The translations under genes were made by a program, and so were the position numbers. The notes under the pieces are model-generated. The model was given only the letters and a program-made list of their open reading frames with translations. It did no database searches and was not told where the DNA came from. From the IMG/VR virus record IMGVR_UViG_3300042292_000979: DNA of 64,000 bases; one strand, given 5' to 3'. The DNA comes from a virus. Positions within the stretch are counted from its first letter, which is position 1. The number at the start of each line of letters is the position of its first letter. Below are positions 15,104 to 15,257 of the stretch, one piece after another.

Positions 15104-15257
15104 CTTGATGGCTTTGAAGTCCCTAGAGTAAAAATTAAAGCGCTAATCGGAAAAGCGCCAATGTCATTCGGGGGGTAAACCAATGACATTTAATGAGCTT
15201 CTGGAGGGACTATATGGCTCACTTTTTAATTACCCTAGAGACATCAAAACCATCAAG
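15104..15257 (-). ncRNA. cloverleaf-like RNA: ~28-bp closing stem and three hairpins with C-rich loops
   Basis: CUUGAUGGUUUUGA.GUCUCUAGGGUAA pairs with UUACUCUAGGGAC.UCAAAGCCAUCAAG, with G-U pairs only on the minus strand. Confidence 0.75.

Follow-up and report, generated by a model that had tools for sequence, protein, structure and literature searches.

The window, i.e. the whole stretch of 64,000 nt of DNA that was analysed, comes from an uncultivated freshwater phage whose relatives in IMG/VR are contigs of ~200-270 kb. It is AT-rich, with a GC content of 29-46% per 2-kb block, mostly 32-40%. The element described here sits in a gap of 543 nt that separates two genes on the minus strand, i.e. 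an 833-aa ORF, which we refer to as the polymerase gene based on the predicted fold of its product (see below), and a 103-aa ORF. The features of the locus, in the order of their coordinates, are:

14765-15076, minus strand: 103-aa ORF, downstream of the sRNA element and in the same orientation
15095-15285, minus strand: predicted sRNA transcription unit, based on a promoter scan, the fold and a covariance model match at 15095-15265 (196 bits), with putative ends
15102-15131, minus strand: 3' arm of the closing stem; the U-run GUUUUUUCUUU (15090-15101) comes next
15139-15159, minus strand: hairpin 3, whose loop UUUCCGAUU (15145-15153) is the exact complement of the AAUCGGAAA box
15160-15190, minus strand: hairpin 2, with the loop UUACCCCCCGA, which is invariant in 13/13 homologues; pair 86/102 covaries AU/UA
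15192-15223, minus strand: hairpin 1, whose loop (15199-15216) contains CAU...GUCCCUCC, complementary to the SD and the AUG of the polymerase gene
15230-15259, minus strand: 5' arm of the closing stem, pairing with 15102-15131, with compensatory changes in 11 of the 29 pairs
15292-15320, minus strand: σ70-like promoter TTGACT-17-TACAAT, matching the consensus at 10 of 12 positions
15574-15615, minus strand: intrinsic terminator of the polymerase gene, with a T9 run and a 19-bp stem that shows covariation among the homologues
15619-18120, minus strand: 833-aa ORF (polymerase gene), upstream of the sRNA element, the gene proposed to be regulated
18118-18144, minus strand: predicted target, the initiation region of the polymerase gene, with the box AAUCGGAAA (18136-18144), the SD GGAGGGGC (18123-18130) and the AUG (18118-18120)

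Neither the region nor the 833-aa protein gave a match in BLASTN and TBLASTN searches of 50,697 deposited phage genomes, and the region is absent from the nearest virus record (G001). Pfam and PHROGs hold no match for the flanking ORFs of 103, 90, 166 and 833 aa, and a protein atlas search with the product of the 103-aa ORF gave no lead. The actinobacterial host suggested in a preliminary description of this DNA finds no support: the only MAG bins that contain the polymerase gene are labelled Cyclobacteriaceae, Acidibacter and Limnohabitans, and as these labels are mutually inconsistent the bins do not allow a host to be deduced.

The terminator at 15574-15615 keeps the transcript of the polymerase gene apart from the non-coding RNA region. 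Between this terminator and the sRNA promoter lies a second non-coding element of ~200 nt (15361-15557, minus strand), which is also present in the diverged relatives L036 and L037 and is more conserved in sequence than the flanking proteins. It combines long invariant single-stranded runs (e.g. GUGAACAGU and ACGAACGAG) with some covarying pairs, has its own promoter-like site (TTGTTA-16-TATGAT) and no match in Rfam. The inverted repeat 15361-15384/15534-15557 at its borders was considered as an RNA helix and rejected, as it is unsupported and its 5' arm overlaps the promoter-like site. Other intergenic stretches of the same gene island also fold strongly on the minus strand, namely 11955-12090 (z -7.9), with C-rich internal and apical loops (UUUCCCCAGA, CGCCCCUUUCGACC), 13223-13365 (z -4.5) and 13969-14339 (z -6.0); the folded intergenic stretches may be a cluster of regulatory RNAs.

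Two further observations concern the surroundings. A 249-aa protein encoded at 12473-13222 (minus strand) has weak similarity to Transposase_20 (IS110 C-terminal) and matches a PHROG annotated as transposase; it is not part of an active insertion sequence, as its syntenic position is fixed in all relatives. An IS110 bridge RNA was discarded as an identity of the element, as this gene of fixed synteny lies 1.9 kb away and the RNA has no internal loops of the bridge type. In the segment 27300-29950, a 50-nt motif (…TGGCAT.GATATATTTATAAAATATAA…) occurs at least seven times at intervals of 140-300 nt, with a GC-rich hairpin after each copy, an arrangement reminiscent of repeated promoter cassettes that serve very short genes.

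On the minus strand, 15095-15265 folds with -66.8 kcal/mol (z -8.4), a value reached by 0 of 200 shuffled sequences. The fold is a four-way junction with a closing stem of 16+13 bp (29 bp) and three hairpins with the loops CCAUAUAGUCCCUCCAGA, UUUACCCC(CC) and UUUUCCGAU. This agrees with the preliminary description, which had placed a long closing stem and three hairpins here (15102-15259 in our fold) and had quoted three plus-strand strings, all of which are present. Rfam 15, searched with the whole window at gathering thresholds, returned only three tRNAs, all outside the element, and a search of the region 14950-15700 at E <=10 returned only chance matches of the miRNA type with E 0.45 or worse. 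In particular, there was no Rfam match to 6C, RsaE, RNAIII, 6S, Y RNA/YrlA, tRNA or CsrB/RsmY.

The cloverleaf-like outline might suggest a tRNA mimic, in which hairpin 3 (UU-CCG-AU) would serve as an anticodon-like loop linked to recoding of CGG(A), and loop 3 indeed contains UCCG, the complement of CGGA. This is the least probable of the explanations considered here: ARAGORN finds tRNAs at 409-2882 only, the tRNA model of Rfam finds nothing at the element either, and the supposed acceptor is a helix of 29 bp instead of 7 bp, lacks a CCA end and comes with a loop of 9-11 nt and no D- or T-loop signatures. Moreover, it is the whole loop of 9-10 nt, and not just 4 nt of it, that matches the start region of the polymerase gene.

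A covariance model (R1) was built from the window and its IMG/VR relative L001, whose contig was the only one to match when viral contigs were scanned for the exact loop 2 motif. Seven further loci came from a scan of metagenome contigs for the loop motifs, and more copies from contigs reached via homologues of the 103-aa protein. This gave 18 copies, 13 of them distinct, from viral and metagenome contigs of freshwater origin; their syntenic position is the same throughout, and each window, locus or genome has one model match, always downstream of the polymerase gene. Run with default filters, the model missed the diverged versions in L036, L037 and L039, which were recovered with the filters off.

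In the model-fitted alignment of the 13 homologues 96.8% of the cells are paired and 14 pairs show compensatory changes; the observed pairing and covariation were reached by 0 of 500 shuffles, and controls with slid partners were 31-44% paired. A structure-blind MAFFT alignment of the whole intergenic region (A4) yielded 98.4% paired cells and 15 compensatory pairs, with every one of the four helices represented. Thermodynamic folding and covariation across related phages, i.e. the means by which the preliminary description had proposed to check its structure, both bear it out. Among the homologues the stems vary and the loops hardly do ((R)(Y)CCCUCC, UUACCCCCCGA and UUUCCGAUU(A/G)); the core of the closing stem (GUCUCUAG) is kept even in the L036, L037 and L039 lineages. 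Homologues fold with z-scores of -11.6 (L001), -8.3 (L036), -9.0 (L045) and -10.5 (L039). Stop codons occur in all six frames of every homologue and, together with the covariation in four helices, mark a non-coding gene with conserved structure, as is expected of a trans-acting sRNA. The element is a structured, conserved non-coding RNA of ~170-190 nt.

The strand follows from the alignment of the homologues, in which, read as minus strand, 77 cells hold G-U and 10 hold A-C, which identifies the minus strand as the RNA strand and confirms what had been proposed from the G-U pairs of the closing stem. The paired fraction is 96.8% for the minus and 87.0% for the plus strand, and the minimum free energy is lower on the minus strand in 11 of the 13 homologues. 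A function of the plus strand, with its GGA/GGGGGG loops as sponge for a CsrA/RsmE-type protein or as starts of small ORFs, could draw on several features: this strand also folds (-52.6 kcal/mol, z -5.0), with the loops AAUCGGAAAA and CUGGAGGGAC, 15321-15338 (plus strand) holds a terminator-like hairpin and T-run, and a 40-codon ORF starts at 15183 after GGGGGG. We nevertheless regard it as very improbable, as G-U counts and paired fractions both favour the minus strand and the conserved promoter is located there as well. In the homologues all plus-strand frames contain stops, and the ATG at 15183 is turned into TTG by covariation in the stem.

The σ70-like promoter precedes the element, and its -35 and -10 boxes are kept across lineages (TTGACA/TTGATT; TAAACT/TATAAT), with a diverging 17-nt spacer; promoter-like boxes are also found upstream of the element in L036 and L037. 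In most lineages the closing stem is followed by a U-run, which is absent in L037. The promoter-like and terminator-like signals of the sRNA are consensus matches only, and from these we infer an RNA that would start ~7 nt past the -10 box and end in the U-run after the closing stem.

A perfect palindrome (ATGTTCCACGTGGAACAT, 15321-15338), shared by all homologues, directly adjoins the -35 box of the sRNA promoter. In L021 it reads TGTTTCACGTGAAACA, both halves being changed symmetrically, and in L036 it is found downstream of the sRNA instead. It resembles the chromosomal parS consensus and could be a ParB site or an operator of the sRNA promoter. With this parS-like palindrome 60 bp away and long inverted repeats around ~100 bp, one may ask if the element acts as DNA, i.e. 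as an origin cruciform or inverted repeat, as a packaging site, or as a MITE with terminal inverted repeats of 29 bp. Its single copy per genome at a constant syntenic place does not fit such a role, and the G-U strand asymmetry, the covariation of the inner hairpins and the conserved loops are signatures of RNA, which leaves a DNA-level feature as improbable as a functional plus strand.

The main rival of a trans-acting sRNA is a cis-acting 5' leader of the downstream operon, i.e. of the 103-aa ORF and the small genes after it. The long stem and the U-run would then constitute an attenuator or an RNase III processing site, controlling the amount of transcription or of stable mRNA for these genes, and the loops would be contacted by a protein or by some other RNA. 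The element ends 26 nt ahead of the AUG of the 103-aa ORF, which has the same orientation and accompanies it in all clade members, in L037 the closing stem runs straight into the SD of the next gene, and a 29-bp duplex is a typical RNase III substrate. Yet the conserved match of loops 1 and 3 to the start region of the polymerase gene would be left unexplained by a leader, the start region of the 103-aa ORF itself offers no complement, and the 29-bp stem has no evident alternative fold that would allow switching. We thus consider the leader unlikely as the sole explanation, although both readings may hold, as early termination of a leader can release an sRNA.

The polymerase gene has at least 227 homologues in metagenomes, none of them annotated, and a PDB sequence search with the 833-aa protein returned noise only. 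An AlphaFold (AF2) model based on 35 homologues (pLDDT 86.3) was matched by Foldseek to QDE-1 (2j7n, E 1.8e-9), plant RDR2 and the phage RNAPs P32 gp64, P74 gp62 and crAss phi14:2 gp66, with TM-scores of ~0.4. Based on these matches of the model the protein is, by predicted fold, a single-subunit two-barrel RNA polymerase of the QDE-1/YonO-like type.

According to the preliminary description, the window contains no exact target; however, loop 1 and loop 3 both find a complement at the start of the polymerase gene, which was listed among the start regions of the window with the leader CAAUCGGAAAGAUCAGGAGGGGCGCAUG. The AAUCGGAAA box, which is not an SD and lies at -24 to -15 relative to the AUG, exactly complements loop 3 (9-10 nt), and the pairing extends to 10 bp with one G-U. 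Loop 1 is complementary to the SD GGAGGGGC over 8 bp, and its CAU to the AUG over 3 bp; part of this match is generic, as a sequence like that of loop 1 will naturally complement any strong SD. When the values for loop 1 and loop 3 are summed, the polymerase start region ranks first among 94 start regions (-29.1, next -21.2), and 0.7% of shuffled loop pairs reach -29.1 in any start region; the complementarity to a start region, which had been suggested earlier, is thus in excess of shuffled controls. The site is also the first of 42,634 segments of 51 nt on both strands, the gene's own antisense excepted, albeit by a small margin in energy (-29.2 vs -28.1). When loop 3 is shuffled, a 9-nt run is found in some start region in 15% of the shuffles. 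The start region is unstructured (z 0.17). Thus, loops 1 and 3 and the polymerase gene present what is expected of a trans-acting sRNA and its target, a conserved unpaired seed facing a conserved mRNA site.

The 9-mer of the box occurs four times in the window, with 0.64 occurrences expected. A second copy of AAUCGGAAA is located at 35084-35092 (plus strand) and is followed, 55 nt downstream, by GGGGCUAUA (35146-35156), which complements loop 1 over 9 bp. Both are within a Gly/Ala-rich late ORF of 94 aa and could be a secondary target or due to chance. The SD of the gene that follows this ORF (ATG 35236) is UAAGGGGGU, a complement of loop 2. Of the remaining two copies of the 9-mer, one is within a late ORF and one antisense to a late ORF.

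The three arms had been described as complements of SD-spacer-ATG sequences, and this holds for arm 1 only. In arms 2 and 3 the supposed ATG is located within paired stems, and in arm 2 it flips to TTG with the covarying pair (AU in 6, UA in 5 homologues), i.e. both ATGs simply result from the palindromic nature of the stems. Similarly, the conserved C-rich loops do complement SDs, as had been proposed, but loop 3 matches the non-SD box.

For the invariant loop 2, no convincing conserved partner was found. One may consider a general anti-SD sRNA with many targets, as proposed in the preliminary description, which would repress several host or phage mRNAs whose ribosome-binding sites are G-rich, acting above all via loop 2 (ACCCCCCGA), with the polymerase gene as one target among others or an incidental one. 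The invariance of loop 2 in 13 homologues would be in line with this, as would SDs of the GGGG(G) type that are able to pair with it (e.g. at the starts 33472, 23729 and 35236) and the precedent of the 6C sRNA, whose C-rich loops hit many G-rich ribosome-binding sites without a chaperone (PMC6486639). However, no second target rises above background, and loop 3, which is not an anti-SD sequence, points to one specific site, so that we rate a general regulator as somewhat less likely still than the leader.

The predicted contacts can be followed through the lineages. Wherever the sRNA has a CCGAUU loop (the window, L001, L030, L031, L032, L033, L016, L018 and L045), AAUCGG(A)AA is found ahead of the polymerase SD in leaders that have otherwise diverged. 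L036, L037 and L039, with 58-62% polymerase identity, keep the closing stem, differ in the inner hairpins and have neither the CCGAUU loop nor the box. The box is likewise absent from all relatives without the sRNA, including four genomes that are 96-100% complete and have no model match. This co-occurrence of box and loop goes back to few independent evolutionary events. At the edge of the contact, L031 has a C before the box and a loop 3 that ends in G, and L001 has U and A, respectively; the change of loop 3 in L045 (UUACCG) is uncompensated and leaves 6+2 bp. In the lineage of L025 and L032 the AAUCGGAAAC box is tandemly duplicated in the polymerase leader (L032 612-656).

Changes are also seen in loop 1 and its counterpart. 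In L025 a U of the loop is replaced by C, giving G-C with GGAGGGGC, L031 has GGAGGGAC, giving A-U, and in L030 the SD gains a G and the loop a C. The more diverged pairs are UGGAGGGUA vs UACCCUCCA in L045 and UAAGGAGGG vs CCCUCCUUA in L039, both exact matches at 9/9 positions, and AAGGGGG vs CCCCCUU in L036 and L037. These changes suggest that loop 1 partly covaries with the flanks of the polymerase SD in diverged lineages. In a permutation test on Watson-Crick runs own pairs exceeded permuted pairs (p = 0.002); with G-U allowed the effect was weak (p = 0.10). Pairing of loop 1 with AGGGACU of the upstream conserved element was also considered and was rejected, as L025 alters the loop without compensation.

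A separate observation concerns IMGVR_UViG_3300042868_009074 (L040 and L041; 267,766 bp, rated 100% complete), which encodes two polymerase paralogues with 61% and 54% identity to the 833-aa protein of the window. L039, which has a short two-hairpin version of the sRNA downstream of its polymerase gene, matches L040 in the polymerase start region and the gene coordinates, and a search of the contig of L040 (G003) with the model at default filters gave no match. The record might be a chimeric assembly.

Taken together, we favour a reading, with an assigned probability of roughly 0.55, in which the element is an anti-SD sRNA that acts in trans and uses two of its loops to repress the polymerase gene of the phage. 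An sRNA of ~170-190 nt would be made from the minus strand, driven by its own σ70-type promoter (15320-15292), and would probably end at the U-run past the 29-bp closing stem. Loop 3 (UUUCCGAUU) would pair with AAUCGGAAA at -24 to -15 of the polymerase mRNA and loop 1 (CAU...GUCCCUCC) with the SD GGAGGGGC and the AUG. As both contacts together cover -24 to +3, i.e. the binding site of the 30S subunit, translation initiation should be blocked, so that repression is the direction of regulation that we infer, and the long stem may in addition be cut by RNase III. Possible roles of loop 2 (ACCCCCCGA) are competition for this G-rich SD or pairing with other SDs that are rich in G. The sRNA could thus act as a timer or as a feedback limiter of the phage polymerase.

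A wider version of this proposal, which we advance more tentatively and rate at slightly less than even odds, is that the element represents a junction-type family of phage sRNAs that co-evolves with the ribosome-binding site of the adjacent QDE-1/YonO-like RNAP gene and shuts off its translation via two loops, and that it belongs to an island of structured RNAs (~11955-12090, 13969-14339, 15361-15557) forming an sRNA regulon of the phage. In any case, comparative data alone yield a well-supported RNA family together with a specific target that lends itself to testing, and the logic would be a plausible one, i.e. limiting or timing the synthesis of a non-canonical phage RNAP. If the proposed pairing is true, the lineages provide a natural set of co-varying sRNA/target pairs in which the evolution of such pairs can be studied.

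Among known systems, RNAIII of S. aureus (targets coa, rot and spa) is similar in being a multi-hairpin regulatory RNA that places C-rich apical loops on the SD of its targets. A further loop of RNAIII binds the target mRNA at another site, so that translation is prevented and RNase III recruited. The likeness to RNAIII and RsaE drawn in the preliminary description is supported as an analogy of mechanism, as is one to 6C. However, RNAIII has 514 nt, is encoded by the host, codes for delta-haemolysin and has no closing stem, whereas the element has ~170 nt, is encoded by a phage and is closed by a 29-bp helix; there is no relationship in sequence or in Rfam. The use of two sRNA loops on two short sites of one mRNA, one of them overlapping the ribosome-binding site, is reminiscent of OxyS-fhlA in E. 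coli. There, the second site lies in the coding region of fhlA and OxyS depends on Hfq; in the polymerase mRNA, in contrast, neither of the proposed sites lies beyond the AUG, and 4 nt separate them.

Most of the known phage sRNAs belong to temperate enterobacterial phages and, to our knowledge, regulatory RNAs have hardly been explored in lytic and jumbo phages. OOP and aQ of λ, sas of P22, 24B_1 of phi24B and VpdS of VP882 are examples of phage RNAs that adjust developmental genes of their own phage by base pairing, and the review that covers them mentions RNA polymerase 0 times (PMC12197685). These RNAs are mostly cis-antisense or of the Hfq-dependent seed type and belong to temperate phages, and none of them is a multi-loop RNA of the junction type.

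Loops of the actinobacterial 6C sRNA with six or so C bind G-rich ribosome-binding sites (AGGGGGG) via contacts between loop and unpaired RNA, without a chaperone (PMC6486639). The element resembles 6C in its loop 2 (ACCCCCCGA) and in the loops of L036 and L037 (UCCCCCC(C)UUU), but differs in its four-way junction with a long closing stem, in being phage-borne and in the missing Rfam match (E <=10). Thus, the element belongs to none of the RNAIII, 6C and OxyS families; by the comparisons made here it is a new family of putative sRNAs with a putative mechanism of a known kind and a concrete predicted target. If this is true, phages, too, would employ chaperone-independent pairing of C-rich loops with SDs, as in RNAIII, RsaE and 6C, and would direct it at their own core machinery.
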